Below, piece by piece: positions 1-15,542 of a stretch of 64,000 bases of DNA (position 1 is the stretch's first letter; each line of letters starts with the position of its first letter). The notes under the pieces were generated by a model, which was given only the letters and a program-made list of their open reading frames with translations, did no database searches and had not been told where the DNA came from. This stretch comes from Leptonemataceae bacterium (GTDB lineage: Bacteria > Spirochaetota > Leptospiria > Leptospirales > Leptonemataceae), in assembly GCA_965227295.1 (NCBI GenBank), contig OZ245742.1:4544001-4608000 (forward strand). Reading direction: 5' to 3'. The position numbers and the translations under genes were made by a program.

Positions 1-998
1 TCCGGAATCTTAGAGAAGATCGCATCTTAGAAGCAACTCAGATGCGGAAGATTATCTACTCCCATGACGAACTAAAGCTCTTTTCCCCAAATACTTGCCC
101 CTACTGCCTTCGAGAAATCGACAGAAACGCCGGTGCGTGCGTCTGTGGGAAGCCTATCAATGAAGAGGACTACGAAAAATTCTTTTACGATCGCGAGGAA
201 TATCTGGATATCTTGAAGGCGAAGCAAAAGTCCATAGAAACAATTGAGATAGCGATCGAATCAGTATCAAAGGACCTGAAAGCGACGGAGGGGCAACTAA
301 GAAACATAGATGAATTAATAAAAGGAAGCTCAACCGAAATCGAAAACTTGTCACGAGACATCGAAACGGGAATTGACCTATCTGCATTCAATGAGATTGA
401 AAACAAGCTTCTGGGAGTCCGCTCTGAAATACAAGACCTACAAAAGGACTTAGAACTCAGAACACAGCAGGACATCATCGAGAAAGAACACGAGGAAAAT
501 GAAAATGAGTATAAACGACTGCTCGCCGCAAGCAAGAGTTTAGAACTAGAGGCAGCACAGGCCATGGAAGAAATACTTGAAATATTTTCCAAAAAATACA
601 AGGAACTGATCCGCTCATCTCTGCCAGAAGTAAATACGGCCGCAATTCAAGAGGATTACATGCCTGTCATAGATGGCGGAATATATAAACAAGCAAGCTC
701 GGCCGTACCACGCCGACTCCTCTATTACTTCGCCCTACTTCACATTTCGCTACAGCATCCTACCGTGCTCTTCCCACGTTTACTGATTATCGACACACCA
801 GAGAACCTCGGGATAGACTATGACGTATTTATGGACACGCTTCAGGCACTAGAGGCTGTCATCCCCGCCGGCAAAGAAGAACAATATCAAGTAATTCTGT
901 CCACAGGAGTTAATAAATATCCAGAGTCATATGCAGAGTATGTCTTCGAGAGTCTGTCCACGGACAATCGCCTACTTAAAGAAGTAGGGCCTGAATAG
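1..998 (+). CDS. C-terminal part of an SMC/Rad50-like coiled-coil ABC ATPase (Lamassu LmuB / ABC three-component type); 5' end lies outside the window
   Basis: Frame is open upstream of ATG 42 back to the window start. CPYC...CVCG zinc-hook-like motif, long coiled coil, SSA signature-like motif, Walker B LLIIDTP, QVILSTG. Lower GC than the host genes. Confidence 0.65.
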   Translation, partial: RNLREDRILEATQMRKIIYSHDELKLFSPNTCPYCLREIDRNAGACVCGKPINEEDYEKFFYDREEYLDILKAKQKSIETIEIAIESVSKDLKATEGQLRNIDELIKGSSTEIENLSRDIETGIDLSAFNEIENKLLGVRSEIQDLQKDLELRTQQDIIEKEHEENENEYKRLLAASKSLELEAAQAMEEILEIFSKKYKELIRSSLPEVNTAAIQEDYMPVIDGGIYKQASSAVPRRLLYYFALLHISLQHPTVLFPRLLIIDTPENLGIDYDVFMDTLQALEAVIPAGKEEQYQVILSTGVNKYPESYAEYVFESLSTDNRLLKEVGPE

Positions 999-1005
999 AA
1001 TCAAG

Positions 1006-1746
1006 GTGTGTACCCGTCTTATCGAAGCGATCGACGGCGCCGTGGCTACGCTTCAATTTACCGGAGCCTACGCCGAACGTCTCGGCCGCCTCTTCGAGGG
1101 GGCGATGACTCAGCAAGCGTCGAATTTCAAATCGGACCAGAAGTATATCCGGTTGAAGTGCGAAAGCCTGGATCAGCAGATCCGGCGGTTATACAGAGAA
1201 TACGCGGCCAGCGAACCAGCCGCCGCGCGGCAGATCATGGAAACCATCCGCGAAATGCAGGATGAAATCAAGACGCTGGAGAAAAAAGGCCAGAGCCTGC
1301 GCGCGGAAGACTTCGAGATCAACAACACCATCCTGCGATACATTGAAGAACTGCGGACGATTCCGGAAAAGTATCTGGCGGCGCGGACCACTGCGGAGAA
1401 AGCGAAACTTCTGCGAAACATGGTGCGCGCGATCTACGTGGACGGCGACGAGGTCATTTTCGACTGGCAAGAGCCGTATGCCTTCCTGGCGGACGAAGGC
1501 ATCTATCTGGCACTCACGAAACCGCGCGGGGGCTGGAAGAGCGGTGGTAAGCTCGCGGCGCAGCGCGCCGCCGCGAGCTTACCACCGCACACCCCGCAAA
1601 TGTCAGGGTGTTCGATTCCGTTTACTTCTGCGGAGCCAGCGAAACGCAGATCGAAAAAGCTGTCCGTGGAAGCGGAGATCGCCGCGCATATCCGGCTGAT
1701 GTTTCGGTTCTGGATGGCCGGCAAGAAACTTGCTGCCCACGGCTGA
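1006..1746 (+). pseudogene. Probable C-terminal fragment of a large serine recombinase, fused to the repeat-arm terminus
   Basis: Coiled coil followed by EKAKLLRNMVRAIYVDGDEVIFDW resembles serine integrase C-termini. No catalytic N-terminal domain. The last ~40 codons come from the repeated arm that starts at 1626. Confidence 0.5.
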
Positions 1747-2329
1747 ATTTGTGGCCACAAAGGCGGAGCATTTGTCGAGGCGCGTGGTGCGGTCGGCGGG
1801 AGTTTACCATGGTAAAATCTTTGGCTGACCCGGGCGTGGATCTCGTACCGGTACGGGGCGTGGGGTTGTGGTGGCCTCGCGCTACGCGCGAGTCTTCGAA
1901 GGTAGGTCCGCGGAAATCAGCCTGCCGGCGAGCGCCGCGCGCCTCGACAAATGCGTGGGGCGTGTGGCCACAGAGAACGGACGCGATCAGCGGAGCGATC
2001 ACGGAAAGAACTCACGGAAAGAACTCACGGAAAGAGGGCAAACATCACATGAGATATTGTTAGAGATTAAAGCACCAGGTGCCGCTGAAATCGAGTCCAC
2101 CTGGCAAGAACCCAACTGGATTATATATACGTCAATCGCGGCGACCAAAGACGTCCACGCTAACATATCTCGGCCGAACTCTAACCCCCGCCGCCCAGGT
2201 CGTGTCGTTTTTCTGGACAATCAAGGGAGTTCGAATTTCACGGCCAGCGCCGAGATCCCGCCGCGCACATCGTCGGTAATGCATCTGTGTATTTTGTGTG
2301 CGACGTCACGAAACCGCCGTACATAAATA

Positions 2330-2373
2330 GCGCGTGCAGGCGAAAACCCACCGGGTCTTCGCCTGCACGCGCG
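2330..2373. terminator. Strong GC hairpin after the three-gene arm operon (mirror copy near 7980-8022)
   Basis: GCGCGTGCAGGCGAA...TTCGCCTGCACGCGC, directly after the stop codon. Confidence 0.65.
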
Positions 2374-2379
2374 CGAACG

Positions 2380-2712
2380 TCACCAGCTCCAGCCGATTTC
2401 CTTTAACTGCTCCTTTTCTTCGGCTACGTCTTCTAACAGGTGGTCGGCGATCCGTTGCCAGTCCACTTTTTCGATGGCCCCCTGGAGTAACTCGCGCAAC
2501 AGTTCGGGAAGTTCGAGCCTGTGCAGATACTCCCGGTGACGATCTCTCAAGTGCGTGGCGAGTTGTTCTTCCTCGCCGTCACGAACACAATCGCAGGCAA
2601 TGCCCATAAACAAATCGTTGGTCGCCGTGTCTTTGTACATGCGCTCAGACACACACCACGTTTCGTAGTTGCCCCAACCGCAATAGTATTCGTTACTCCT
2701 TCCAGCCGTCAT
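2380..2712 (-). CDS. Phage/plasmid-type hypothetical protein (YxGWxNYETW motif), left-arm copy
   Basis: 110 aa with YCGWGNYETW and VDWQRIADHL motifs typical of small phage/plasmid proteins. Confidence 0.65.
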   Translation of the reverse strand: MTAGRSNEYYCGWGNYETWCVSERMYKDTATNDLFMGIACDCVRDGEEEQLATHLRDRHREYLHRLELPELLRELLQGAIEKVDWQRIADHLLEDVAEEKEQLKEIGWSW

Positions 2713-2896
2713 CGCAGAGGACCTTCTCCGGCTCTTTGCCGATCAATTCCCGGAGCGGCGGACGCTTACGCAGGTCCGCCGCAATGAGATTGCGAATGTG
2801 CTGTGCCGTGTTCGCGAAGCGCGTGCGCAATTCGTAGCGCATGTCTTCGCTGATGCCGACCAGATACTGAACTGATTTTCTTCCCGGGTCTTTCAT
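2693..2896 (-). CDS. Small protein, possibly ribbon-helix-helix DNA-binding, left-arm copy
   Basis: MKDPGRKSVQYLVGISEDMRYELRTRFANTAQHIRNLIAADL; ATGA overlap with the upstream stop; AGGAGG SD. Confidence 0.55.
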   Translation of the reverse strand: MKDPGRKSVQYLVGISEDMRYELRTRFANTAQHIRNLIAADLRKRPPLRELIGKEPEKVLCDDGWKE

Positions 2897-3366
2897 GCTT
2901 CGGCCTCCTGGTCCAGGTCGTCGAAGAGCGGGTAGAAACGAGTGCTTTTCGGCGCTCCCAGGTAACACGCGCGGCGGAGTTCCTGGTCCCACTCGCAAGC
3001 GACCTGTTGAAGTTCGAGAAACACTTCTCGATTTACTTTTAAGAGGGAATTCAGCCGGGACGGCTGCGGTACCTTCACCGGGGTGTAGACCTCTTTGAAT
3101 TCACCGGTAGTTTCACTGGCGAGCAGAAACGGAAACCACTCATTGTCCGCCGTGATTTCGAACTGCATTTCGCGAGCGCACAGCCAGCGGCCGTTTGCTT
3201 GCTTGATGAACTGCGAAACGCCCAGGGCGGGGCGAGCGGTTGGACCCTCTCCCAGAAACTCGATGACGAGCAGCGGGTATTCTTCGTGCTCCACGCGGAT
3301 GGACTCGCACTGCTTGAGCGCTTCCATGCCTTCGTGACTGACGATGATTTTCTGAATTGTTTCCAT
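2893..3366 (-). CDS. Hypothetical mobile-element protein (DUF6908-like), left-arm copy
   Basis: 157 aa, GGAGG Shine-Dalgarno, LVIEFLGEGP...EMQFEI pattern; identical to 6986-7459. Confidence 0.7.
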   Translation of the reverse strand: METIQKIIVSHEGMEALKQCESIRVEHEEYPLLVIEFLGEGPTARPALGVSQFIKQANGRWLCAREMQFEITADNEWFPFLLASETTGEFKEVYTPVKVPQPSRLNSLLKVNREVFLELQQVACEWDQELRRACYLGAPKSTRFYPLFDDLDQEAEA

Positions 3367-3527
3367 GTGATAGATTCCTCCGGGGGAAGGCTAAACACAC
3401 GGCGGCATACTGCAAGTTTAAACTCAAGGAAAGTTAATTTTTTGCTGACAAAAGCCCGGAGACATGCTAACATCACGAAATGTTACTCTAGTAAATGTCG
3501 ATGCACGAGGTCGCCCGCTTCTCTCTT

Positions 3528-3600
3528 TCAGGGGTGCGGGATTCGAACCCACTTCCCGGGGGACACAGTCCCGGATGTTAGCCGCATACACCAACCCCTA
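3528..3600 (-). tRNA. tRNA-His(GTG), atypical (no G-1/C73)
   Basis: Cloverleaf with anticodon loop CTGTGTC and GGTTCGAATCC T-arm. Confidence 0.75.
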
Positions 3601-3605
3601 TTGAA

Positions 3606-3679
3606 AATCCCGGCGAGGACTCGAACCCCGATCGACGGGGATAGAAGCCCCGTGCTTTTTCCCGTTAAGCTACCGGGAT
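3606..3679 (-). tRNA. tRNA-Arg(TCT)
   Basis: Anticodon arm CGGGG-CTTCTAT-CCCCG; T-loop TTCGAGT. Confidence 0.85.
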
Positions 3680-3682
3680 ACT

Positions 3683-3755
3683 TCGAAGCGGCTGGAATCG
3701 AACCAACACCAACGGCATATCAGAGCGTCGTTCTCAACCGTTAAACTACGCTTCG
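3683..3755 (-). tRNA. tRNA-Ile(GAT)
   Basis: Loop CTGATAT; acceptor CGAAGCG/CGCTTCG; one mismatch in the anticodon stem. Confidence 0.8.
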
Positions 3756-3759
3756 TATG

Positions 3760-3830
3760 CACCACGTAGGGGAGTCGAACCCCTGCTACTCGATCGACAA
3801 TCGGGCGTTCTACCGTTAAACTAATGCGGC
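3760..3830 (-). tRNA. tRNA-Asp(GTC)
   Basis: Loop TTGTCGA; T-loop TTCGACT; G discriminator. Confidence 0.8.
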
Positions 3831-3836
3831 AAACTG

Positions 3837-3910
3837 TAGGGCCCGCGGGACTCGAACCCGCAATCTCCAGATTCGTAATCTGATGCCTTGATCCATTTGG
3901 CCAGGGCCCT
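3837..3910 (-). tRNA. tRNA-Arg(ACG)
   Basis: TCAGA-TTACGAA-TCTGG arm. Confidence 0.88.
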
Positions 3911-3913
3911 GTG

Positions 3914-3987
3914 TTGGACTTGCAGGACTCGAACCTGCGGCCTTCCGCCTCGGAAGCGGGTGCTCTTTCCCTCTGAGCTAAAGTCCA
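3914..3987 (-). tRNA. tRNA-Arg(CCG)
   Basis: CCGC-TTCCGAG-GCGG arm. Confidence 0.85.
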
Positions 3988-3990
3988 GTG

Positions 3991-4061
3991 TGGAGCCGGT
4001 GGGAATCGAACCCACATCTGTTGCTTGCAAAACAAAGATTCTCCCGTTAAACTACGGCCCC
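3991..4061 (-). tRNA. tRNA-Ala(TGC)
   Basis: Loop TTTGCAA; G3:U70 alanine identity pair present. Confidence 0.85.
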
Positions 4062-4064
4062 GTG

Positions 4065-4138
4065 TACGGGCTGCTGGATTCGAACCAGCGATCTCCTGTT
4101 TGTAAGACAGGCGTTCTGACCTGCTAAACTAAGCCCGT
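4065..4138 (-). tRNA. tRNA-Val(TAC)
   Basis: CCTGT-CTTACAA-ACAGG arm. Confidence 0.9.
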
Positions 4139-4141
4139 GTG

Positions 4142-4213
4142 TTGCGGCGAAAGGAATTGAACCTCCGTAGGACGGGTTATGAGCCCGTTGCATCGCCACT
4201 ATGCTACACCGCA
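4142..4213 (-). tRNA. tRNA-Met(CAT), initiator-like
   Basis: ACGGG-CTCATAA-CCCGT with three consecutive G-C pairs; weak U1-A72 pair. Confidence 0.8.
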
Positions 4214-4219
4214 ATGTTT

Positions 4220-4294
4220 TGCCCGGTGCATGGATTCGAACCTGCAACCAGCGGTTTACAAAACCGCCGCTCTAACCATTGGAGCTAACCGGGC
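4220..4294 (-). tRNA. tRNA-Thr(TGT)
   Basis: GCGGT-TTTGTAA-ACCGC arm. Confidence 0.9.
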
Positions 4295-4297
4295 GTG

Positions 4298-4369
4298 TGC
4301 ATCAGCAGGGAATCGAACCCTGATGATCTGCTTGGAAGACAGACATGTTGGCCGTTACATCACTGATGC
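4298..4369 (-). tRNA. tRNA-Gly(TCC)
   Basis: TCTGT-CTTCCAA-GCAGA arm. Confidence 0.88.
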
Positions 4370-4373
4370 GTAT

Positions 4374-4447
4374 TCGTCGGGTTCGGGATCGAACCGAATT
4401 CTCTCGCTTTTCAGGCGAGCGCTCATGACCACACCTGCTCCCCGACG
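4374..4447 (-). tRNA. tRNA-Phe(GAA)
   Basis: CTCGC-CTGAAAA-GCGAG arm; weak D-arm. Confidence 0.8.
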
Positions 4448-4504
4448 TTCGTCTTGTTCTTCTTAAAGTCACTTTCGCTCATATTTACTCCTTAGTGCGA
4501 AATG

Positions 4505-4576
4505 TGGGTCCGGTGGGATTCGAACCCACGGCCATCCGATTAAAAGTCGGATGCTCTACCCCCGAGCTCCGGACCC
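4505..4576 (-). tRNA. tRNA-Lys(TTT)
   Basis: TCCGA-CTTTTAA-TCGGA arm. Confidence 0.9.
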
Positions 4577-4641
4577 GCTATTCTCTAAATGTCTTCTTGT
4601 CATCTTCGCTCTTCATGGCGTATCTCCTGTTGCTTATGATG

Positions 4642-4714
4642 TGCACCGCAAGAGACTCGAACTCTTCCCTGCTGCATGGCACACAGCTATGCTTGCCACT
4701 AACACCAGCGATGC
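4642..4714 (-). tRNA. tRNA-Gly(GCC)
   Basis: GCTGT-GTGCCAT-GCAGC arm. Confidence 0.8.
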
Positions 4715-4723
4715 GTTTAAACG

Positions 4724-4757
4724 AAAAAACCCTCCAGGGAGTCGGCCGGGGAGGGTT
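4724..4757 (-). terminator. Attenuator terminator of tRNA block 4
   Basis: AACCCTCC...GGAGGGTT followed by TTTT on the minus strand, directly before tRNA-Gly. Confidence 0.85.
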
Positions 4758-4784
4758 CTTCATGAATGCGTTTGCAGATTCTTC

Positions 4785-4901
4785 TCAGCAACGCATGCGC
4801 AGAACTCCTCCGGCGATCCGGCCGTCCTTATGGCCCGCATCGATCCGCATCCCGATAAATCGGGCGGTTCTCACAACCGTTGCTGTTACTGTTAAGCTCA
4901 T
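4785..4901 (-). CDS. Leader peptide of block 4, MSLTVTATVVRTARFIGMRIDAGHKDGRIAGGVLRMRC
   Basis: Codons 4-33 use only the 11 amino acids of the downstream tRNAs. Only synonymous changes in copy B (13977-14093). Confidence 0.85.
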   Translation of the reverse strand: MSLTVTATVVRTARFIGMRIDAGHKDGRIAGGVLRMRC

Positions 4902-4951
4902 GATAGAATACTCAGACGAATCCCTTGTTAAATTTCTTATAAAAATATCTT

Positions 4952-5023
4952 TGCCGACGCAGGGAATCGAAACCTGATTACCGCAGTGAAAGTGCGAGGT
5001 CCTTGCCTTTAGACGACGCCGGC
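4952..5023 (-). tRNA. tRNA-Glu(TTC)
   Basis: Loop CTTTCAC; T-stem imperfect in copy A and intact in copy B. Confidence 0.8.
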
Positions 5024-5119
5024 GATTTGAGTTGAAACGTAGTTAGGTCCACGTTCCCGTTCTCGCGGCATCGCTCCAGCTGACACGTATGTACGTCCTG
5101 CGCGGTTCATTATACTATG

Positions 5120-5190
5120 AGACATGGGTGGGATTCGAACCCACGTAAACGGCTTTGCAGACCGCCCGCTGGCCTCTCGCGCACCATGTC
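5120..5190 (-). tRNA. tRNA-Cys(GCA)
   Basis: GCGGT-CTGCAAA-GCCGT arm; U discriminator. Confidence 0.88.
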
Positions 5191-5285
5191 GGGTTTACTC
5201 TGGCTTGCGGCGGTCGGTAACATCGTTCTCTGTCTTCCATATCTCCCTCATAACACTTGAAAAATAAGCAAAATGCCCATAAACG

Positions 5286-5319
5286 AAAAAAGGCGAGCCG
5301 TTGATCCGGGCTCGCCTTT
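5286..5319 (-). terminator. Attenuator terminator of tRNA block 3
   Basis: AAAGGCGAGCC...GGCTCGCCTTTTTT. Confidence 0.88.
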
Positions 5320-5343
5320 CGCATCCAGCAGGTTACACTGAAT

Positions 5344-5451
5344 CTAAGACGAGCGCATGACTCCCTGAAACACATCACGCTCACAACCCGCATGAATCAT
5401 GCCGGCCTTCGCGAGGTCTCGTTCCGTTCTATGTTGGCGCTTCGGCGACAT
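5344..5451 (-). CDS. Leader peptide of block 3, MSPKRQHRTERDLAKAGMIHAGCERDVFQGVMRSS (alternative start 5400)
   Basis: Adjacent Cys-Glu codons; the stop overlaps GCTCGTCTT, which complements the terminator 5' arm; frame conserved in copy B (13375-13482). Confidence 0.65.
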   Translation of the reverse strand: MSPKRQHRTERDLAKAGMIHAGCERDVFQGVMRSS

Positions 5452-5531
5452 TCCGTTTCCTGAATACTTACTTGGTATTCGACGTCAACAACTTCATAAA
5501 GATTTAAATATTTTTTTCATGGAACTCAATG

Positions 5532-5604
5532 TTCCGGGAGATGGATTCGAACCATCAACCCCCGACTTCAAAGGCCGGTGTTCTACCCGTTGAACTACCC
5601 CGGA
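5532..5604 (-). tRNA. tRNA-Gln(TTG)
   Basis: CCGGC-CTTTGAA-GTCGG arm. Confidence 0.88.
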
Positions 5605-5612
5605 ATGAGTTG

Positions 5613-5684
5613 CACCGGAGGCAGGACTCGAACCTGCATAGAACGCATTAACATTGCGTCGCCTTACCATTAGGCTACTCCGGT
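5613..5684 (-). tRNA. tRNA-Asn(GTT)
   Basis: ACGCA-ATGTTAA-TGCGT arm. Confidence 0.88.
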
Positions 5685-5688
5685 ATTC

Positions 5689-5766
5689 TGGCAGAGGGAA
5701 CAGGATTCGAACCTGTGAACATCGGATTTGGAGTCCGACAGCTTGGACCGCTCGACTCATCCCTCT
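5689..5766 (-). tRNA. tRNA-Trp(CCA), with encoded 3' CCA
   Basis: TCGGA-CTCCAAA-TCCGA arm. Confidence 0.88.
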
Positions 5767-5769
5767 ATG

Positions 5770-5842
5770 TCGGCGTGGTGGGACTTGAACCCACGACCCC
5801 CGGTTCCCGAAACCGGTGCTCTACACCCTGAGCTATACGCCG
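5770..5842 (-). tRNA. tRNA-Pro(CGG)
   Basis: CCGGT-TTCGGGA-ACCGG arm; C1-G72, A73. Confidence 0.9.
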
Positions 5843-5845
5843 GAT

Positions 5846-5882
5846 AATAAAAAACCCCCTCAAGCTTCCGCCGGAGGGGGTT
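5846..5882 (-). terminator. Attenuator terminator of tRNA block 2
   Basis: AACCCCCTC...GAGGGGGTTTTTTATT. Confidence 0.88.
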
Positions 5883-5911
5883 CTCGCGCAAACGCGCTGT
5901 TGCTCAGAGCA

Positions 5912-5983
5912 CTACACGACCACCTCCAGGCAGATGCCGGGATTCTGTTGGGGCCAGTTGCTCTGTGGGAAAAACATGCTCAT
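5912..5983 (-). CDS. Leader peptide of block 2, MSMFFPQSNWPQQNPGICLEVVV
   Basis: PQSNWPQQNP control run matches the Pro/Trp/Asn/Gln tRNAs. Copy B (12689-12754) is 6 nt shorter at the 5' end with the frame preserved. Confidence 0.88.
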   Translation of the reverse strand: MSMFFPQSNWPQQNPGICLEVVV

Positions 5984-6087
5984 CACGTTTACCTGAAGTT
6001 AAGAGACGACGGTTTTCGAGAAATCCTTAACGAAAATATATTTTTTGGAACGAAAGCTTCGCTTTGCCTCGTCTCATCTACCGTATC

Positions 6088-6156
6088 ATGAACGGTATGT
6101 TACTATCATCGCTGTATCTTCTCAGCTCCGGCGGCATGCGGGAGGCGGCGATGTAG
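6088..6156 (+). CDS. Leader peptide of block 1, MNGMLLSSLYLLSSGGMREAAM (alternative start 6097)
   Basis: Ten consecutive Leu/Ser/Tyr codons, all different; identical in copy B (12516-12584, minus strand). Confidence 0.9.
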   Translation: MNGMLLSSLYLLSSGGMREAAM

Positions 6157-6184
6157 TACGCGCAGACAGTTTTCTGTCTTCGAG

Positions 6185-6224
6185 AAGCCCCTCCCGGTGA
6201 ACCCGCGAGGGGCTTTTTGTTTTT
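6185..6224 (+). terminator. Attenuator terminator of tRNA block 1
   Basis: AAGCCCCTC...GAGGGGCTT followed by TTTGTTTTT. Confidence 0.88.
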
Positions 6225-6228
6225 AAAC

Positions 6229-6315
6229 GCGCTGCTTTCCTCCTGCCGGTCTGTAAAGCCGGGGTCGTTAAACGAGGAGGTCGGGAGACGAGAGGTTCAA
6301 ATCCTCGGCAGCGCA
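6229..6315 (+). tRNA. tRNA-Tyr(GTA)-like RNA lacking a normal D-arm
   Basis: Acceptor GCGCTGCT/GGCAGCGC; arm CCGGT-CTGTAAA-GCCGG; T-arm GAGG-TTCAAAT-CCTC. Confidence 0.65.
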
Positions 6316-6319
6316 TACT

Positions 6320-6403
6320 GGATAGATGCCCGAGTGGTAAGGGACCCGTTTCGAAAACGGAGGTCGGCGGTTCGTCGCGTGGGTTCGATTCCTACTCTAT
6401 CCG
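6320..6403 (+). tRNA. tRNA-Ser(CGA)
   Basis: Loop TTCGAAA, long variable arm, G73. Confidence 0.88.
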
Positions 6404-6409
6404 CATTAC

Positions 6410-6493
6410 GGAGGGATGACCGAGTGGTAAGGTATCCGGTTGGAAGCCGGTGGTCATCGATGAGATGCGAAGGTTCGATTCCTTCTCCCTCCG
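6410..6493 (+). tRNA. tRNA-Ser(GGA)
   Basis: Loop TTGGAAG, long variable arm, G73. Confidence 0.88.
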
Positions 6494-6499
6494 AGAAAT

Positions 6500-6584
6500 G
6501 GAACAGTGGCCGAGAGGTAAGGCAGCGGTCCGCTAAACCGTGGTCGTCGTAACAGACGCGGAGGTTCGATTCCTCCCTGTTCCG
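6500..6584 (+). tRNA. tRNA-Ser(GCT)
   Basis: GCGGT-CCGCTAA-ACCGT arm (C33), long variable arm. Confidence 0.85.
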
Positions 6585-6587
6585 CAG

Positions 6588-6662
6588 CGAGCGATAGCCC
6601 AATCAGGCAGAGGCAGTCGACTTAAAATCGGCAGAGTGCGGGTTCGATTCCCGCTCGCTCAA
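6588..6662 (+). tRNA. tRNA-Leu(TAA), short variable loop
   Basis: GTCGA-CTTAAAA-TCGGC arm. Confidence 0.82.
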
Positions 6663-6665
6663 AAC

Positions 6666-6738
6666 GCATCCGTAGCCCAACGGTAGAGGCACCAGGTCGA
6701 GAGCCTGGTCAGTGCAGGTTCGAATCCGGCCGGATGCA
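6666..6738 (+). tRNA. tRNA-Leu(GAG), short variable loop
   Basis: CCAGG-TCGAGAG-CCTGG arm (C33). Confidence 0.75.
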
Positions 6739-6741
6739 CAC

Positions 6742-6814
6742 GGGGACGTAGCCCAACGGCAGAGGCAGCACGCTCAGAACGTGTCCAGTGTGAGTTCGAA
6801 TCTCGCCGCCCCCA
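6742..6814 (+). tRNA. tRNA-Leu(CAG), short variable loop
   Basis: GCACG-CTCAGAA-CGTGT arm. Confidence 0.82.
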
Positions 6815-6985
6815 TAGAGTCTCCACTGAAGAGATTTGCGACCTCGTGCATCGACATTTACTAGAGTAACATTTCGTGATGTTAGCATGTCTCCGGGCTT
6901 TTGTCAGCAAAAAATTAACTTTCCTTGAGTTTAAACTTGCAGTATGCCGCCGTGTGTTTAGCCTTCCCCCGGAGGAATCTATCAC

Positions 6986-7459
6986 ATGGAAACAATTCAG
7001 AAAATCATCGTCAGTCACGAAGGCATGGAAGCGCTCAAGCAGTGCGAGTCCATCCGCGTGGAGCACGAAGAATACCCGCTGCTCGTCATCGAGTTTCTGG
7101 GAGAGGGTCCAACCGCTCGCCCCGCCCTGGGCGTTTCGCAGTTCATCAAGCAAGCAAACGGCCGCTGGCTGTGCGCTCGCGAAATGCAGTTCGAAATCAC
7201 GGCGGACAATGAGTGGTTTCCGTTTCTGCTCGCCAGTGAAACTACCGGTGAATTCAAAGAGGTCTACACCCCGGTGAAGGTACCGCAGCCGTCCCGGCTG
7301 AATTCCCTCTTAAAAGTAAATCGAGAAGTGTTTCTCGAACTTCAACAGGTCGCTTGCGAGTGGGACCAGGAACTCCGCCGCGCGTGTTACCTGGGAGCGC
7401 CGAAAAGCACTCGTTTCTACCCGCTCTTCGACGACCTGGACCAGGAGGCCGAAGCATGA
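6986..7459 (+). CDS. Hypothetical protein (DUF6908-like), right-arm copy
   Basis: Identical to 2893-3366. Confidence 0.7.
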   Translation: METIQKIIVSHEGMEALKQCESIRVEHEEYPLLVIEFLGEGPTARPALGVSQFIKQANGRWLCAREMQFEITADNEWFPFLLASETTGEFKEVYTPVKVPQPSRLNSLLKVNREVFLELQQVACEWDQELRRACYLGAPKSTRFYPLFDDLDQEAEA

Positions 7460-7659
7460 AAGACCCGGGAAGAAAATCAGTTCAGTATCTGGTCGGCATC
7501 AGCGAAGACATGCGCTACGAATTGCGCACGCGCTTCGCGAACACGGCACAGCACATTCGCAATCTCATTGCGGCGGACCTGCGTAAGCGTCCGCCGCTCC
7601 GGGAATTGATCGGCAAAGAGCCGGAGAAGGTCCTCTGCGATGACGGCTGGAAGGAGTAA
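7456..7659 (+). CDS. Small putative RHH DNA-binding protein, right-arm copy
   Basis: ATGA coupling to the upstream gene; AGGAGG SD. Confidence 0.55.
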   Translation: MKDPGRKSVQYLVGISEDMRYELRTRFANTAQHIRNLIAADLRKRPPLRELIGKEPEKVLCDDGWKE

Positions 7660-7972
7660 CGAATACTATTGCGGTTGGGGCAACTACGAAACGTGGTGTG
7701 TGTCTGAGCGCATGTACAAAGACACGGCGACCAACGATTTGTTTATGGGCATTGCCTGCGATTGTGTTCGTGACGGCGAGGAAGAACAACTCGCCACGCA
7801 CTTGAGAGATCGTCACCGGGAGTATCTGCACAGGCTCGAACTTCCCGAACTGTTGCGCGAGTTACTCCAGGGGGCCATCGAAAAAGTGGACTGGCAACGG
7901 ATCGCCGACCACCTGTTAGAAGACGTAGCCGAAGAAAAGGAGCAGTTAAAGGAAATCGGCTGGAGCTGGTGA
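7640..7972 (+). CDS. Phage/plasmid-type hypothetical protein, right-arm copy
   Basis: Identical to 2380-2712. Confidence 0.65.
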   Translation: MTAGRSNEYYCGWGNYETWCVSERMYKDTATNDLFMGIACDCVRDGEEEQLATHLRDRHREYLHRLELPELLRELLQGAIEKVDWQRIADHLLEDVAEEKEQLKEIGWSW

Positions 7973-8316
7973 CGTTCGCGCGCGTGCAGGCGAAGACCCG
8001 GTGGGTTTTCGCCTGCACGCGCTATTTATGTACGGCGGTTTCGTGACGTCGCACACAAAATACACAGATGCATTACCGACGATGTGCGCGGCGGGATCTC
8101 GGCGCTGGCCGTGAAATTCGAACTCCCTTGATTGTCCAGAAAAACGACACGACCTGGGCGGCGGGGGTTAGAGTTCGGCCGAGATATGTTAGCGTGGACG
8201 TCTTTGGTCGCCGCGATTGACGTATATATAATCCAGTTGGGTTCTTGCCAGGTGGACTCGATTTCAGCGGCACCTGGTGCTTTAATCTCTAACAATATCT
8301 CATGTGATGTTTGCCC

Positions 8317-9328
8317 TCTTTCCGTGAGTTCTTTCCGTGAGTTCTTTCCGTGAGTTCTTTCCGTGAGTTCTTTCCGTGAGTTCTTTCCGTGAGTTCTTTC
8401 CGTGAGTTCTTTCCGTGAGTTCTTTCCGTGAGTTCTTTCCGTGAGTTCTTTCCGTGAGTTCTTTCCGTGAGTTCTTTCCGTGAGTTCTTTCCGTGAGTTC
8501 TTTCCGTGAGTTCTTTCCGTGAGTTCTTTCCGTGAGTTCTTTCCGTGAGTTCTTTCCGTGAGTTCTTTCCGTGAGTTCTTTCCGTGAGTTCTTTCCGTGA
8601 GTTCTTTCCGTGAGTTCTTTCCGTGAGTTCTTTCCGTGAGTTCTTTCCGTGAGTTCTTTCCGTGAGTTCTTTCCGTGAGTTCTTTCCGTGAGTTCTTTCC
8701 GTGAGTTCTTTCCGTGAGTTCTTTCCGTGAGTTCTTTCCGTGAGTTCTTTCCGTGAGTTCTTTCCGTGAGTTCTTTCCGTGAGTTCTTTCCGTGAGTTCT
8801 TTCCGTGAGTTCTTTCCGTGAGTTCTTTCCGTGAGTTCTTTCCGTGAGTTCTTTCCGTGAGTTCTTTCCGTGAGTTCTTTCCGTGAGTTCTTTCCGTGAG
8901 TTCTTTCCGTGAGTTCTTTCCGTGAGTTCTTTCCGTGAGTTCTTTCCGTGAGTTCTTTCCGTGAGTTCTTTCCGTGAGTTCTTTCCGTGAGTTCTTTCCG
9001 TGAGTTCTTTCCGTGAGTTCTTTCCGTGAGTTCTTTCCGTGAGTTCTTTCCGTGAGTTCTTTCCGTGAGTTCTTTCCGTGAGTTCTTTCCGTGAGTTCTT
9101 TCCGTGAGTTCTTTCCGTGAGTTCTTTCCGTGAGTTCTTTCCGTGAGTTCTTTCCGTGAGTTCTTTCCGTGAGTTCTTTCCGTGAGTTCTTTCCGTGAGT
9201 TCTTTCCGTGAGTTCTTTCCGTGAGTTCTTTCCGTGAGTTCTTTCCGTGAGTTCTTTCCGTGAGTTCTTTCCGTGAGTTCTTTCCGTGAGTTCTTTCCGT
9301 GAGTTCTTTCCGTGAGTTCTTTCCGTGA
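8317..9328. repeat. Perfect 13-bp tandem repeat (TCTTTCCGTGAGT), ~78 copies
   Basis: 1012 bp of invariant units; the mirror site 1999-2035 has ~2.8 units. Confidence 0.97.
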
Positions 9329-9356
9329 TCGCTCCGCTGATCGCGTCCGTTCTCTG

Positions 9357-11340
9357 GTCGCGGTAGAACGGCCGGTTGCCCGGCCGCCCCCGCACAGATC
9401 CCGGCGTGCGGTATTCTCGCACCGGGCTCTTCGAAAGCACTCGCTTCCACATAAAGTCAATTCAGAGTAAGTCGCAACTGAGATACTGGTCGTTCCATGA
9501 TGCGCGGTTTTTCGATCCGGTAGTGCGCCATCAGATCCCTCAGCCCCTGCCAGTCCAGACTCCGGCGCTGACTGCGCCGATTGAGCCACTTGTACAGATT
9601 CATTTCCACCTGATAGTAGAAGCTTCGTATACTCTTGTAGTTGCATTGGACGCCATAATAGTTATAGTATCCACGCAGCCGGGAGTTCAGAAGATTGAAG
9701 AACCTGCGCATGGGTAGATGCCGATTCGCTTTAATCCACTGCTTCACATTCTGGATCGACGCATGCAATCGCTTTGGAGCGGTGCGACGCGGAACCCACC
9801 AGAACCCCTTTCGAGAACGAGCCCAGCGGTATTCAAAGCCTAGAAATACGAACGCCTCACGCCCGGTATTGAACTTCGCGCGGAAGCCCGGGCGCTCGAA
9901 ACTTTTCACTCCTGACTTTTCCGGCGCCAGTTCCAGACCAAACTTTCGCAAACGTTTTCCAAGCGTCGCATAGAATTTCAGCGCATCGTCTTTGGATTCA
10001 AAGGCGCAAACAAAATCGTCCGCGTATCGACACATATAGGCCGGTCTCTTGCAGTGCTTCTTCACCACTTTCTCGAACCAGAGGTCCAGTACGTAATGAA
10101 GATAGACGTTCGCCAGAACCGGACTGATCACGCCGCCTTGAGGAGTCCCAGCGGTCGGGCGCGAGACCTGACCGTTTACCTCCAGCACGCCTGCTTTCAG
10201 CCACTTGCGAATCAGACCGAGAAAGGCCCGATCATCGATTCGTTGCTCCAGCATTCGCATCAACCAATCATGGTCAATGTTGTCGAAGAAACCCTTGATG
10301 TCGGCTTCCACAATCCAGCCGAGCTTCCCCGGACTCAAAGTTGAACTCAGAGTCTTCGAAGCCTCACGCGGACCGGTGTTCGGCCGATAACCATACGAAC
10401 ACGACAGGAAGTCTTGCTCATAGATCGCTTCAAGGATACGCGTCGCGCATGTTTGTACCAGTTTGTCTTCGAGGGCCGGCAATCCAAGCGGACGTTGTTT
10501 TCCGTCCGCTTTCGGGATAAAGACCCTGCGAATCAGTTTTGTTCGGTATCGTTTCTGTTTTAAGCGTTCCACCAGATCCCCGACATTTTCCGTAAGGTTC
10601 GCTTCGTAGTCGCGAAACGTTTCACGGTCCACGCCCGGAGCCGCCCGGCGATTCATTCCTGCGAACGAATCTTCGAGATTCATCTGGTTGAGCATCCCAT
10701 ACAGATTACGAAACAGATGTTTCTTACTCCTCCTCGCTTTATTTGCTATTGCCCGTAGTGAGGTTTGCATCAGTTGTTCCGATCCTGCCGTCCGGCTGAT
10801 GTTGACTCTGCGAGCTGCGTACTTTCGTCAGCCCCTTCCCCGATCATCGCGCATCGCACGCGAAGACCGAACCCGTCGAAACTCCATTCGAGTTTCATTC
10901 GATTCTGTGGACGGCTCTCCCGCCCTCTGAGTACTATGGGCTGATCCGACTCCCCGTTGATCATCATTCTTCCTTGTTCATTCGGTCAGAATTACCTTCG
11001 CTATCGTCGAAGGAACCAACGGGGTCTCCCGGGTTCCACGATGTTTCTCTGCATACATGCCGCGCTCAAGCGACCCCGACAGACCTCCAGAATCTCGCTA
11101 AAACGATTCCTTTGTGCTGGTTTCCATCTGACCAATGATGTCACCGTCTGCATCTATGGCATTTTACGAGGCTCAACAGCTTCCGGGAGTGTGGACTCCC
11201 CTACGGCCTGCATGCTTCCCTGTGTACGCTTCGTGTGGCGGTTACCCGCTTCCACGCAACACTCGGTAGAAGTTGTTCGCTAAACTTTACTTCATATGGA
11301 CTTTCACCTTATCAGAAACATCGGGCTTTGCCCGGCGCAC
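9357..11340 (-). mobile_element. Group II intron (~1984 nt), probably bacterial class E
   Basis: 5' GTGCG at 11340; domain V/VI GAGCCCGGTGCGAGAATACCGCACGCCGGGATCTGTGCGGGGGCGG...CTACCGCGAC; the exons rejoin to the intact left-arm site at 1970/1971. Confidence 0.93.
9457..10770 (-). CDS. ltrA: Group II intron reverse transcriptase/maturase without endonuclease domain
   Basis: RPLGLP, SYGYRP, DIKGFFD, GTPQGG and YADD motifs, followed by maturase domain X. Confidence 0.95.
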   Translation of the reverse strand: MQTSLRAIANKARRSKKHLFRNLYGMLNQMNLEDSFAGMNRRAAPGVDRETFRDYEANLTENVGDLVERLKQKRYRTKLIRRVFIPKADGKQRPLGLPALEDKLVQTCATRILEAIYEQDFLSCSYGYRPNTGPREASKTLSSTLSPGKLGWIVEADIKGFFDNIDHDWLMRMLEQRIDDRAFLGLIRKWLKAGVLEVNGQVSRPTAGTPQGGVISPVLANVYLHYVLDLWFEKVVKKHCKRPAYMCRYADDFVCAFESKDDALKFYATLGKRLRKFGLELAPEKSGVKSFERPGFRAKFNTGREAFVFLGFEYRWARSRKGFWWVPRRTAPKRLHASIQNVKQWIKANRHLPMRRFFNLLNSRLRGYYNYYGVQCNYKSIRSFYYQVEMNLYKWLNRRSQRRSLDWQGLRDLMAHYRIEKPRIMERPVSQLRLTLN

Positions 11341-11499
11341 TGGCCACACGCCCCACGCATTTGTGGCCACAAATTCAGCCGTGGGCAGCAAGTTTCTTGC
11401 CGGCCATCCAGAACCGAAACATCAGCCGGATATGCGCGGCGATCTCCGCTTCCACGGACAGCTTTTTCGATCTGCGTTTCGCTGGCTCCGCAGAAAAAT

Positions 11500-11680
11500 T
11501 GATCCATGACCTACTTCGACCACTGCATAACCAACGCCGGCTCGGAAGGGATGAATTCACGAATCCAGGCGATCAAAACTCGCGCCCGGGGCTTCCGAAA
11601 CTTCGCCCATTACCGGGCCTCGATCCTCTCTCATTGCGGGGATTTAGAGCTTTATCCGTGAAAATTCCTGAAGATGGACG
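11500..11680 (+). pseudogene. ISL3-family transposase C-terminal remnant
   Basis: Reads YFDHCITNAGSEGMNSRIQAIKTRARGFRNF...CG, then LELYP* after a frameshift, followed by an IR-like AAATTCCTGAAGA. Confidence 0.75.
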
Positions 11681-11799
11681 CACATGGCGGCATATTACAA
11701 GTTTAAACTCAAGGAAAGTTAATTTTTTGCTGACAAAATCCTGGAGACATGCTAACATCACGCAATGTTACTCTAGTAAATGTCGATGCACGAGATCGC
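11681..11799. repeat. Truncated left arm of tRNA array B
   Basis: Diverged copy of ~3396-3514. Confidence 0.9.
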
Positions 11800-11822
11800 A
11801 AATCTCTTCAATGGAGACTATA

Positions 11823-12443
11823 TGGGGACGGTGAGACTCGAACTCACACTAGACACGTTCTGAGCGTGCTGCCTCTACCGCGAATGTAAGCAGTTGCTCC
11901 CGGGTGGTCGCAACTGCGGCGGTTCAGACTGCTTCGCAGTCTGGGCTACGGATGCGTTTCGAGCGAGCGGGAATCGAACCCGCACTCTGCCGATTTTAAG
12001 TCGACTGCCTCTGCCTGATTGGGCTATCGCTCGCTGCGGAACAGGGAGGAATCGAACCTCCGCGTCTGTTACGACGACCACGGTTTAGCGGACCGCTGCC
12101 TTACCTCTCGGCCACTGTTCCAATTTCCGGAGGGAGAAGGAATCGAACCTTCGCGCCTGTTAAGACGACCGCCGGCTTCCAACCGGATACCTTACCACTC
12201 GGTCATCCCTCCACGCTGCGGATAGAGTAGGAATCGAACCCACGCGACGAACCGCCGACCTCCGTTTTCGAAACGGGTCCCTTACCACTCGGGCATCTAT
12301 CCAGTATGCGCTGCCGAGGATTTGAACCTCTCGTCACCCGACCTCCTCGTTTAACGAGTAAACTGTACCTTGCTGCGCAAGCCTTGACTTACTACCGCCT
12401 TTCAGTTGCTGGCGTTTACAGACCGGCAGGAGGAAAGCAGCGC
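11823..12443 (-). tRNA. Array B block 1: Tyr-like (insertion), Ser CGA, Ser GGA, Ser GCT, Leu TAA, chimeric Leu GAG/CAG (insertion)
   Basis: Homologous to 6229-6814 in inverted orientation; leader at 12516-12584 and terminator retained. Confidence 0.88.
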
Positions 12444-12823
12444 GTTTAAAAAGAAAAAGCCCCTCGCGGGTTTACCGGGAGGGGCTTCTCGAAGACAGAG
12501 AACTGTCCGCGCGTACTACATCGCCGCCTCCCGCATGCCGCCGGAGCTGAGAAGATACAGCGATGATAGTAACATACCGTTCATGATACGGTACATGAGA
12601 CGAGGCAAAGCGAAGCTTTCGTTCCAAAAAATATATTTTCGTTAAGAATTTCTCGAAAACCGTCGTCTCTTAACTTCAGGTAAACGTGATGCACTTCCCA
12701 CAGAGCAACTGGCCCCAACAGAATCCCGGCATCTGCCTGGAGGTGGTCGTGTAGTGCTCTGAGCAACAGCGCGTTTGCGCGAGAACCCCCTCCGGCGGAA
12801 GCTTGAGGGGGTTTTTTATTATC

Positions 12824-13294
12824 CGGCGTGTAGCTCAGGGTGTAGAGCACCGGTATCGGGAACCGGGGGTCGTGGGTTCAAGTCCCACCACGCCGACATA
12901 GAGGGATGAGTCGAGCGGTCCAGGCTGTCGGACTCCAAATCCGATGTTCACAGGTTTTTGTGCATGGATGCACTTATGCCGCGGAGGACAGGAAGTCCGG
13001 GAGCGGCCGAATCCTGAAAGAGGAAGATGCTACGCATCTTTCATCTTACTGACGCGCTGCGCTTGTCCCTCTGCCAGAATACCGGAGTAGCCTAATGGTA
13101 AGGCGACGCACTGTTAATGCGTTCTATGCAGGTTCGAGTCCTGCCTCCGGTGCAACTCATTCCGGGGTAGTTCAACGGGTAGAACACCGGCCTTTGAAGT
13201 CGGGGGCGCAAATAGACTTTTGCCTTATGGCAAAAGTCGGCGGTTCGGAGTTGTGCGGCAACGCACAACTCCGGGTCCTCACCATCTCCCGGAG
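12824..13294 (+). tRNA. Array B block 2: Pro CGG, Trp CCA (two insertions), Asn GTT, Gln TTG (T-arm replaced by an insertion)
   Basis: Homologous to 5532-5842; leader at 12689-12754 and terminator retained. Confidence 0.88.
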
Positions 13295-13635
13295 CATTGA
13301 GTTCTATGAAAAAAATATTTAAATCTTTATGAAGTTGTTGACGTCGAATACCGAGTAAGTAATCAGGAAACGGAATGTCGCAGAAGCGCCTACAGACAAC
13401 GGAACGAGACCTCGCGAAGGCCGGCATGATTCATGCGGGTTGTGAGCGTGATGTGTTTCAGGGAGTCATGCGCTCGTCTTAGATTCAGTGTAACCTGCTG
13501 GATGCGAAAGGCGAGCCCGGATCAACGGCTCGCCTTTTTTCGTTTATGGGCATTTTGCTTATTTTTCAAGTGTTATGAGGGAGATATGGAAGACAGAGAA
13601 CGATGTTACCGACCGCCGCAAGCCAGAGTAAACCC

Positions 13636-13926
13636 GACATGGTGCGCGAGAGGCCAGCGGGCGGTCTGCAAAGCCGTTTAACGTGGGTTTGTGTGCAGGG
13701 ATGCACTTATGCCGCGAAGGACAGGATGTCCGGGAGCGGCCGAATCCCACCCATGTCTCATAGTACAATGAACCGCGCAGGACGTACATATGTATCAGCC
13801 GGAGCGATGCCGCGAGAGCGGGAACGTGGATCAAGCTACGTTTCAACTCAAATCGCCGGCGTCGTCTAACGGCAAGGACGCTGCACTTTCACTGCGGTAA
13901 TCGGGGTTCGATTCCCCGCGTCGGCA
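13636..13926 (+). tRNA. Array B block 3: Cys GCA (51-nt insertion), Glu TTC
   Basis: Homologous to 4952-5190; leader at 13375-13482 and terminator retained. Confidence 0.88.
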
Positions 13927-14163
13927 AAGGTATTTTCATAAGAAATTTAACAATGGATTCGTCTGAGTATTCTATCATGAGCTTAACAGTAACAGCAACG
14001 GTTGTAAGGACCGCCCGATTTATCGGGATGCGGATCGATGCGGGCCATAAGGACGGCCGGATCGCCGGAGGAGTTCTGCGCATGCGTTGCTGAGAAGAAT
14101 CTACAGACGCATTCATGAAGAACCCTCCCCGGCCGACGCCCTGGAGGGTTTTTTCGTTTATAC

Positions 14164-15529: not shown

Positions 15530-15542
15530 AAGAGAGAAGCGG

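Follow-up and report, generated by a model that had tools for sequence, protein, structure and literature searches.

A leader peptide spelling its downstream tRNAs as a candidate attenuator of a block in a long bacterial tRNA array

How is transcription of a long array of tRNA genes controlled? The regulation of individual tRNA genes in bacteria is little understood, and the question is raised by a 64,000-nucleotide stretch of DNA from a Leptonemataceae bacterium (contig OZ245742.1, positions 4,544,001 to 4,608,000; the whole stretch is referred to here as the window), in which ARAGORN found 41 tRNA genes arranged as two arrays (Table 1). Array 1 is organised as four tRNA blocks on two strands. 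One of these, block 4, carries 14 tRNA genes in the order Gly-gcc, Lys, Phe, Gly-tcc, Thr, Met, Val, Ala, Arg-ccg, Arg-acg, Asp, Ile, Arg-tct and His, and it is preceded by a short open reading frame (ORF), the block 4 leader, that encodes the peptide MSLTVTATVVRTARFIGMRIDAGHKDGRIAGGVLRMRC.

Judged from sequence, this leader is probably a ribosome-mediated transcription attenuator that gates the 14 tRNA genes within a horizontally acquired array; we put the chance of this at roughly two in three. A preliminary description of the same DNA had proposed a multivalent leader-peptide attenuator, and at the sequence level that proposal gains support, as its structural parts outperform shuffled controls and sister leaders in the same array match their own blocks.

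Codon content of the block 4 leader

The residues encoded by codons 4-33 belong exclusively to the set G, K, F, T, M, V, A, R, D, I and H, the 11 amino acids carried by the block 4 tRNAs, and every member of the set is represented. Over the entire leader, 33 of the 37 codons after the start fall within it. Under strict wobble rules, all 14 block 4 tRNAs have at least one cognate codon, and these lie within codons 4-25. Block 4 tRNAs can read 28 of the 37 leader codons, and five more (ACC, GCC twice and GTT twice) would become readable if the Thr, Ala and Val tRNAs with U34 decode four-codon boxes. Set against the ARAGORN tRNA calls, three claims of the preliminary description were thus borne out: a run of 30 consecutive codons limited to the amino acids of the downstream tRNAs, the presence of all 11 of them in that run, and the use of five different Arg codons, which we found among six Arg residues. 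A correspondence between the order of codons in the leader and the order of tRNAs in block 4 was also considered and dropped, as no relation was apparent by eye.

The codon match does not arise by chance. Across all six frames of the window, only 2 of 69,486 stop-free 30-codon segments were fully in-set, namely the two copies of the leader; the longest in-set run elsewhere spanned 26 codons and used merely six different amino acids. Coverage of the individual tRNAs was just as distinctive, with strictly cognate codons for all 14 present in 10 of 80,384 stop-free 22-codon segments, all inside the leader copies, and a modal coverage of 7 of 14. In simulations with host codon usage (in-set frequency 0.62), the probability of having at least 33 of 37 codons in the set was 2e-4 and that of covering all 14 tRNAs was 4e-4, with a joint probability of about 5e-6.

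Alternative structures and the two leader copies

The block 4 leader RNA can adopt three mutually exclusive pairings, designated 1:2, 2:3 and 3:4 after the regions involved (Table 1). The 1:2 pairing joins codons 6-13 with codons 32-39 at -24.9 kcal/mol, compared with a shuffle mean of -12.8 (sd 3.3; 1 of 1,000 shuffles equal), and is also found when the entire leader is folded to minimum energy (-74.2 kcal/mol). In the competing 2:3 pairing, codons 26-37 bind the spacer that follows the stop codon, the 5' arm of the terminator and the 14-nt terminator loop, forming a duplex of -41.0 kcal/mol that none of 1,000 shuffles equalled (mean -24.0, sd 4.1). The pairing between the leader end and a terminator arm that had been noted earlier is therefore real and longer than first claimed, since it also reaches into the terminator loop, which is complementary to codons 26-28. 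This extension explains why the loop is unusually long. The length of the loop put the terminator beyond the reach of a simple terminator scan, whose rule permits loops of 3-8 nt. As the terminator ends so close to the first tRNA gene, no space for a promoter is left, and block 4 would be made by read-through only.

We modelled the effect of a ribosome on this choice by equilibrium folding with 30 nt masked around the A site. With no ribosome on copy 1, the terminator formed with a probability of 0.90. With the A site placed at codons 8-26, this probability fell to 0.04-0.55 at 15 of 19 positions, and with the A site at codons 27-39 it returned to 0.86-0.98. Within the limits of this model, the pattern is as expected for an attenuator that senses about codons 3-26, the stretch that lists all 14 tRNAs.

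These elements suggest how the gate would work. RNA polymerase would have to pass the terminator to reach the block 4 tRNAs. During fast translation, a ribosome on codons 27-39 would cover region 2, the terminator would form and transcription would halt. A delay within about codons 3-26, caused by a cognate tRNA that is scarce, uncharged or damaged or by a general slowing of translation, would leave region 1 covered or the ribosome lagging, so that the 2:3 antiterminator could form and the 14 tRNAs would be made. Without any translation, 1:2 pairing would leave the terminator free to form. Because every one of the 14 tRNAs finds a cognate codon within codons 4-25, the leader may act as a summed transit-time sensor for the tRNA species under its control, and the released tRNAs would restore decoding and thereby close the gate. 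We infer that the leader is translated and that its translation is coupled to transcription, and the same applies to the physiological signal and the benefit of the response.

A second copy of the leader in array 2 encodes an identical peptide. Across the 237-nt tRNA-Glu/tRNA-Gly intergenic region, the copies differ at nine positions: three in the 50 nt upstream of the ORF, two in the 117-nt ORF and four in the 70 nt downstream. Both ORF differences (GTG/GTA at codon 10 and AGA/AGG at codon 11) are synonymous, as had been noted from the sequence before. The changes fit a translated ORF, in a sample too small for dN/dS. They fall in region 1 and are not compensatory, weakening 1:2 from -24.9 to -21.8 kcal/mol, and the copy 2 antiterminator remains strong at -38.6 kcal/mol. 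The absence of tRNA-Arg(TCT) from copy 2 was evident with both ARAGORN and Rfam. The further suggestion that an AGA codon was lost together with this tRNA, as part of a joint loss of leader codons and tRNA genes, did not hold up: AGG, like AGA, belongs to the AGR box, which is within reach of a UCU anticodon, and copy 2 keeps leader codons for Lys, Gly-tcc, Val, Arg-ccg and Ile despite insertions in the corresponding genes, so there is no sign of co-loss.

Sister leaders and a Pseudomonas parallel

If block 4 is gated by a leader that spells its amino acids, do other blocks have leaders of their own? We defined blocks as ARAGORN tRNAs less than 110 nt apart and scored upstream ORFs (10 codons or more, within 450 nt) by the best-window binomial against the amino acids of the block, which gave 232 ORFs from the window and ten fetched loci. 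The four top-scoring ORFs were all leaders from the window, each with a terminator: those of block 4 and of the Pro/Trp/Asn/Gln block, and both copies of the Ser/Leu leader. The next hit (p = 2.6e-4) was an alternative frame of the copy 2 Ser/Leu leader region.

The Pro/Trp/Asn/Gln leader contains PQSNWPQQNP, in which 9 of 10 codons specify P, Q, N or W. Among 102,145 10-codon segments, at least nine of ten residues from this set occurred only in this leader and its copy, and an in-frame 6-nt indel near the start distinguishes the two copies. The Ser/Leu leader contains LLSSLYLLSS; the window holds three 10-codon segments made up entirely of L, S and Y, two of which are the leader copies. This leader uses five Leu and four Ser codons, and none of the three Ser and three Leu tRNAs downstream is left without a cognate one. 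Its Tyr codon fits a Tyr-like tRNA gene (Table 1) that has an acceptor stem, a T arm, a long variable arm and a Tyr (GTA) anticodon loop and lacks a normal D arm; ARAGORN misses this gene by default and in -mt mode yields a partial 47-nt mitochondrial-type tRNA-Tyr (gta). Both sister leaders have a 1:2, 2:3 and 3:4 layout with the regulatory codons as region 1. The four blocks partition the amino acids without overlap into sets of 11, 4, 2 and 2, or of 11, 4, 3 and 2 with the Tyr-like gene, which then account for all 20. An ORF at 5009-5125 was considered as a Glu leader and rejected: its start lies inside tRNA-Cys, it overlaps tRNA-Glu and it has no terminator.

Outside this genome, leaders homologous to one another were found on four Pseudomonas megaplasmids, namely the FeN3W plasmid, pMPPla107, pPL1 and pBASL58, with the peptides MSISSSLPRSTRLMPSQA, MNTLSLSSSMPTPSLMAS, MSSISSLTSLTPSSPAD and MNMPSMPSSLTMTLPSPMA. 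All four have a near-consensus sigma-70 promoter and 16-18 codons after the start, and three have a Shine-Dalgarno sequence of the GAGGA type. In their predicted fold, the start-codon region pairs with a segment just past the stop; downstream come two hairpins whose stems are identical, and the latter of these, the terminator, lies 91-99 nt before the first tRNA-Ser. The peptides diverge in sequence yet are all rich in S, T, P, L and M, and the arrays begin with Ser and Ser, followed by Thr, Pro, Leu, Met and more Ser tRNAs. Most codons of each leader were readable by the downstream tRNAs (Table 1), taken as the same-strand tRNAs of each fetched locus (all nine for pPL1 and the first nine of 14 for pBASL58). 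Two details are anecdotal at n = 4: pBASL58, with tRNA-Met third in its array, has four internal Met codons in its leader, compared with 0-2 in the others, and FeN3W has both the sole array with tRNA-Arg(TCT) and the sole leader with AGA. The internal spacers of the Pseudomonas arrays held no further leaders, and Rfam returned no family for the Pseudomonas leaders. PMC6482414 mentions neither the megaplasmid leaders nor attenuation or leaders in general.

The Pseudomonas leaders, unrelated in sequence to those of the window, show what appears to be an independent parallel built on the same logic. They resemble the block 4 leader in being short ORFs that mirror the downstream tRNAs and are followed by a terminator, and differ in having one leader per array, about five amino acids, clear sigma-70 promoters and Shine-Dalgarno sequences and another hairpin layout. 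They suggest that the principle has more than one origin, and it may be widespread among long tRNA arrays.

Table 1. Positions of the leaders, RNA elements, tRNA blocks and neighbouring features. Coordinates refer to the window, except for the Pseudomonas leaders, which are numbered within their own loci.
Feature	Position	Strand	Details
Block 4 leader ORF, copy 1	4785-4901	-	38 codons plus TGA, ATG start
In-set run, codons 4-33 (30 codons)	4803-4892	-	binomial p = 3.3e-7, also its leader-scan p
Region 1, 5' arm of the 1:2 anti-antiterminator, codons 6-13	4863-4886	-	minimum-energy fold and duplex; coordinates by arithmetic
Region 2, codons 26-39	4785-4826	-	pairs with region 1, or is the 5' arm of the antiterminator
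Region 3, 3' arm of the antiterminator	4736-4784	-	post-stop spacer, terminator 5' arm and 14-nt loop
Intrinsic terminator	4724-4760	-	hairpin of -16.8 kcal/mol plus six U; ends 9 nt before tRNA-Gly(gcc)
Block 4, 14 tRNA genes	3528-4714	-	ARAGORN; Rfam tRNA matches
Block 4 leader ORF, copy 2	13977-14093	+	identical peptide, two synonymous differences
Terminator, copy 2	14118-14154	+	
Block 4, copy 2	14164-15530	+	8 tRNAs called intact; 5 with insertions (Lys, Gly-tcc, Val, Arg-ccg, Ile); Arg-tct absent
Pro/Trp/Asn/Gln leader	5912-5983	-	leader-scan p 2.3e-7; tRNAs 5531-5842; terminator 5849-5885; copy near 12690-12755
Ser/Leu leader	6088-6156	+	leader-scan p 7.9e-7 (both copies); tRNAs 6320-6814; terminator 6182-6218; copy near 12518-12586
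Tyr-like tRNA gene	6229-6314	+	between the Ser/Leu terminator and the first tRNA-Ser; Rfam tRNA-Sec model 21.6 bits, E = 0.25
Cys/Glu candidate leader (weak)	5344-5451	-	tRNAs 4952-5190; terminator 5286-5319; copy near 13376-13483
Leader, FeN3W plasmid (L004)	about 18970-19026	-	13/17 codons readable by downstream tRNAs; in-set binomial p 1.5e-2
Leader, pMPPla107 (L011)	5943-5999		15/17 codons readable; p 1.3e-3
Leader, pPL1 (L012)	5899-5952		11/16 codons readable; p 1.2e-4
Leader, pBASL58 (L013)	5970-6029		16/18 codons readable; p 1.6e-6
tRNA array 1	3528-6814		26 tRNA genes in 3.3 kb, all called intact by ARAGORN
tRNA array 2	11959-15530		inverted copy of array 1, 87-99% identical (inverted-repeat arms); many tRNAs interrupted or missing
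51-nt T-loop inserts, array copy 2	12950-13012, 13683-13745, 14602-14664, 14884-14946, 15088-15150		
Other tRNA inserts (approximate)	14348-14393 (Lys); 12972-13045 (Trp, second insert); 12345-12400 (Tyr-like); 15367-15405 (Ile); 13207-13280 (Gln)	- (Tyr-like)	
Lamassu LmuB-like SMC ATPase, C-terminal part	3-998	+	PADLOC E = 2.4e-25
ORF after the LmuB-like gene	1006-1746	+	marginal PADLOC matches, E about 0.003-0.005
Group II intron	9357-11304	-	Rfam D1-D4 domain, 130.7 bits; between the two arrays
Group II intron ORF	9457-10770		reverse-transcriptase and maturase domains

Competing explanations and genomic setting

A number of findings weigh against reading the block 4 leader as an attenuator of its tRNAs. 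Phe, His and Lys have one leader codon each, and Met has one within the sensing stretch; for Phe, His and Lys, low sensitivity is thus to be expected. When the peptide was held fixed and its codons redrawn, all 14 tRNAs were covered in 8% of cases with host codon usage and 30% with island usage, and at least five Arg codons appeared with a probability of 0.02 or 0.12, respectively. The match is therefore firm for amino acids and only suggestive for isoacceptors, and the use of many synonymous Arg and Gly codons is not a significant signal once the peptide is fixed (P = 0.08 and 0.30 for full coverage). No clear Shine-Dalgarno sequence precedes the ORF, in a genome whose genes use such sequences patchily, and neither a promoter scan nor inspection by eye found a sigma-70-like promoter upstream of the leader. 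In the folding model, A sites at codons 13, 14, 18 and 23 of copy 1 still favour the terminator (0.55-0.82), and in copy 2 the equilibrium probability of the terminator is 0.99 at every ribosome position, a single change in the terminator loop adding base pairs that stabilise it. By this model, copy 2 would either need co-transcriptional kinetics to respond or be locked off.

Evidence from conservation is similarly thin. Two of two ORF changes being synonymous has a chance of about 0.07 under neutrality (a rough estimate from the share of synonymous sites), and the ORF divergence of 2/117 is not significantly below that of the flanks (7/120). HMMER searches with the leader peptide gave 0 matches among 1.84 billion protein representatives, a collection that does not include the leader itself, and blastn of positions 3400-7000 against plasmids and phages left the leader region unmatched, returning generic tRNA matches only. 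A degenerate 9-codon pattern searched in a genome contig collection without the source genome hit three loci in Bacillota metagenome-assembled genomes, which we judged unrelated: L001 and L003 lack tRNA genes, the match in L001 lying on the opposite strand of a long ORF, and the four tRNA genes of L002 are about 2 kb away from its match. As no homologue was found, conservation of the block 4 leader rests on two copies that are 96% identical. Among the other leaders, the Cys/Glu candidate is weak, with one Cys and two Glu codons and four amino-acid changes in the first eight codons between copies, and the Pro codons of the Pro/Trp/Asn/Gln leader (CCA, CCC and CCC) cannot be read by the only tRNA-Pro of the block (CGG). 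Six other plasmid tRNA loci that were found through tRNA matches (L005-L010; Tsukamurella, Mycolicibacterium, Curtobacterium, Persicobacter and single tRNAs of Pseudarthrobacter and pBASL58) have no matched leader, so matched leaders are not universal.

Could the leader instead be a generic sensor of translation stress, in which only ribosome movement is measured, as in drug-inducible leaders, and the amino-acid match plays no role? In the mask model any slowdown in codons 3-26 would favour the antiterminator, having one codon apiece for Phe, His and Lys points to a low codon-specific sensitivity, and the long tRNA array of Anabaena is induced by any ribosome-targeting antibiotic (PMC8421152). 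However, such a sensor leaves unexplained why, in a single array, three leaders are each written mainly in the amino acids of their own block and contain few of the rest, and why the S/T/P/L/M composition of the Pseudomonas leaders is kept despite sequence drift. We therefore regard it as unlikely.

We give the same low standing to a classical sensor of amino-acid starvation, which would respond to uncharged tRNA of any isoacceptor and tie tRNA transcription to amino-acid supply. The robustness of the match at the level of amino acids rather than isoacceptors speaks for it, as do the sister-leader Pro codons that mismatch tRNA-Pro(CGG). Its benefit is doubtful, however, as extra tRNA gives no relief from amino-acid starvation, and it does not predict the strictly cognate codons for 14 of 14 tRNAs within 22 codons of the block 4 leader or those for six Ser/Leu tRNAs and the Tyr-like tRNA in the Ser/Leu leader.

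An ORF that arose by chance within a structured terminator region, or a relic in decay that no longer functions, would account for the lack of a recognisable ribosome-binding site and of detected homologues and for the many interrupted tRNAs of copy 2, but is very improbable given the empirical and simulated probabilities, the matched sister leaders, the structures that exceed shuffles, the intact tRNAs of copy 1 and the parallel Pseudomonas family. Least credible is a T-box-like sensor in which the tRNAs would bind the leader directly without translation: it shares with the block 4 leader a terminator/antiterminator choice reporting tRNA status, a highly structured RNA and, here, tRNAs as the controlled genes, but a T-box binds one tRNA, fourteen specifier sites in one RNA would be without precedent, the signal is frame-specific and codon-based, and Rfam detected no T-box motif or other family in the leaders, the block 4 leader having no match at E <= 1 or E <= 10.

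An attenuator of the block 4 tRNAs would be a mechanism of a known kind. The multivalent attenuators of amino-acid operons respond to Ile, Leu and Val in ilvGMEDA and to Thr and Ile in thr. Like these, the block 4 leader combines a short ORF holding regulatory codons, 1:2, 2:3 and 3:4 hairpins and an intrinsic terminator ahead of the controlled genes. Unlike classical attenuators, which control biosynthesis or synthetase genes, it precedes tRNA genes. It covers 11 amino acids (14 tRNA species) rather than two or three, its regulatory codons are spread over about 22-30 codons with many occurring singly, whereas those of ilvGMEDA and thr stand in tight runs, and its antiterminator additionally pairs with the terminator loop. 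In the pheST attenuator, the pheM leader peptide controls a gene of the translation apparatus through the decoding of cognate codons; there, one amino acid is sensed and the target is a synthetase, compared with tRNA targets here. The novelty lies in which genes are controlled, in how far the multivalency extends and in the division of a whole tRNA set by blocks.

The general principle of leader-peptide attenuation features in the abstract of PMC1183508. We found no description of leader-peptide attenuators before tRNA genes in the full-text literature searched, which leaves out most subscription journals. Attenuation, leaders and terminators go unmentioned in PMC8421152 and PMC10272220, as do tRNA genes and operons in PMC2965389.

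The arrays look like a horizontally acquired long tRNA array of the type described in PMC8421152. Their tRNA genes stand in tandem with short spacers, as in the L-arrays of that paper and far above what gene-by-gene accretion gives. GC content is 0.50-0.55 across positions 1-16000, which include both arrays, compared with 0.58-0.65 in the remaining window. This low GC content, together with neighbours that comprise a group II intron, a transposase fragment, Lamassu LmuB and a phage-family protein, points to a foreign origin. With the LmuB-like gene beside them, the arrays adjoin an anti-phage defence system. The Anabaena array (PMC8421152, PMC10272220) is likewise long and foreign-looking. It is silent by default, induced by impaired translation and transcribed as a single operon under promoter control by the repressor TrcR (PMC8421152), whereas the array of the window has four blocks on two strands, each with its own leader and terminator.

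We speculate that the block 4 leader and its sisters have a role against tRNA depletion, a thought prompted by the defence-island context, by the induction of the Anabaena array (PMC8421152) and by papers that deal with phage tRNAs and tRNA-targeting defences (PMC10264068, PMC11464382). A wider reading, which we hold tentatively and at rather less than even odds, is that mobile tRNA arrays carry codon-resolved supply sensors, with at least three of the four units here gated by leaders that spell the amino acids of the tRNAs behind them and free just the tRNAs for which decoding falters. If so, a near-complete spare tRNA set (19 amino acids, or 20 with the Tyr-like gene) would be split into four transcription units, with the block 4 and Ser/Leu leaders spelling every isoacceptor, and its tRNAs would be released, for example, after the action of anticodon nucleases or of tRNA-depleting defences or toxins and shut off once supply returns. 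With such control, tRNA supply would feed back on itself directly and in cis, attenuation would reach beyond amino-acid biosynthesis to the decoding machinery, multivalency would rise from three to eleven amino acids, and there would be a mechanism by which long transferred tRNA arrays stay silent until translation stress. The leaders would also offer a natural modular part for codon-specific or tRNA-specific sensors, and the Pseudomonas parallel makes a systematic survey of tRNA arrays worthwhile.

Array 1 is bracketed exactly by a perfect (100%) inverted repeat of 1,516 nt (1999-3514 and 6838-8353), which could permit inversion of the array, result from recent gene conversion or be an assembly effect. 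Each arm holds a gene for a DUF6908 (phrog_9098) protein, which thus flanks the array on both sides, and no relatives of this protein were found beyond the source contig. Between the right arm and the group II intron, positions 8317-9328 consist of 77.8 copies of a 13-nt unit, perfectly repeated in tandem (100% matches); the long ORFs at 8026-9646 are probably artefacts of this repeat.

The tRNA genes of array 2 show further peculiarities. The copy 2 tRNA-Phe (14478-14550, + strand) has an anticodon arm entirely different from that of copy 1 (4374-4447, - strand), keeps the GAA anticodon and is still called as a tRNA. The copy 2 Trp, Cys, Gly-tcc, Val and Arg-ccg tRNAs carry the same 51-nt insert at an identical site in the T loop. 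These inserts fold as two hairpins, in which 3 of 14 predicted pairs are preserved through two-sided changes; they have no Rfam match and no relatives in plasmids, and may represent a structured T-loop-targeting mobile element or an intron-like insert. Other inserts in copy 2 tRNAs, of about 37-60 nt, lie in the variable region or the anticodon loop, and those of the Lys, Trp and Tyr-like genes have a short motif in common.

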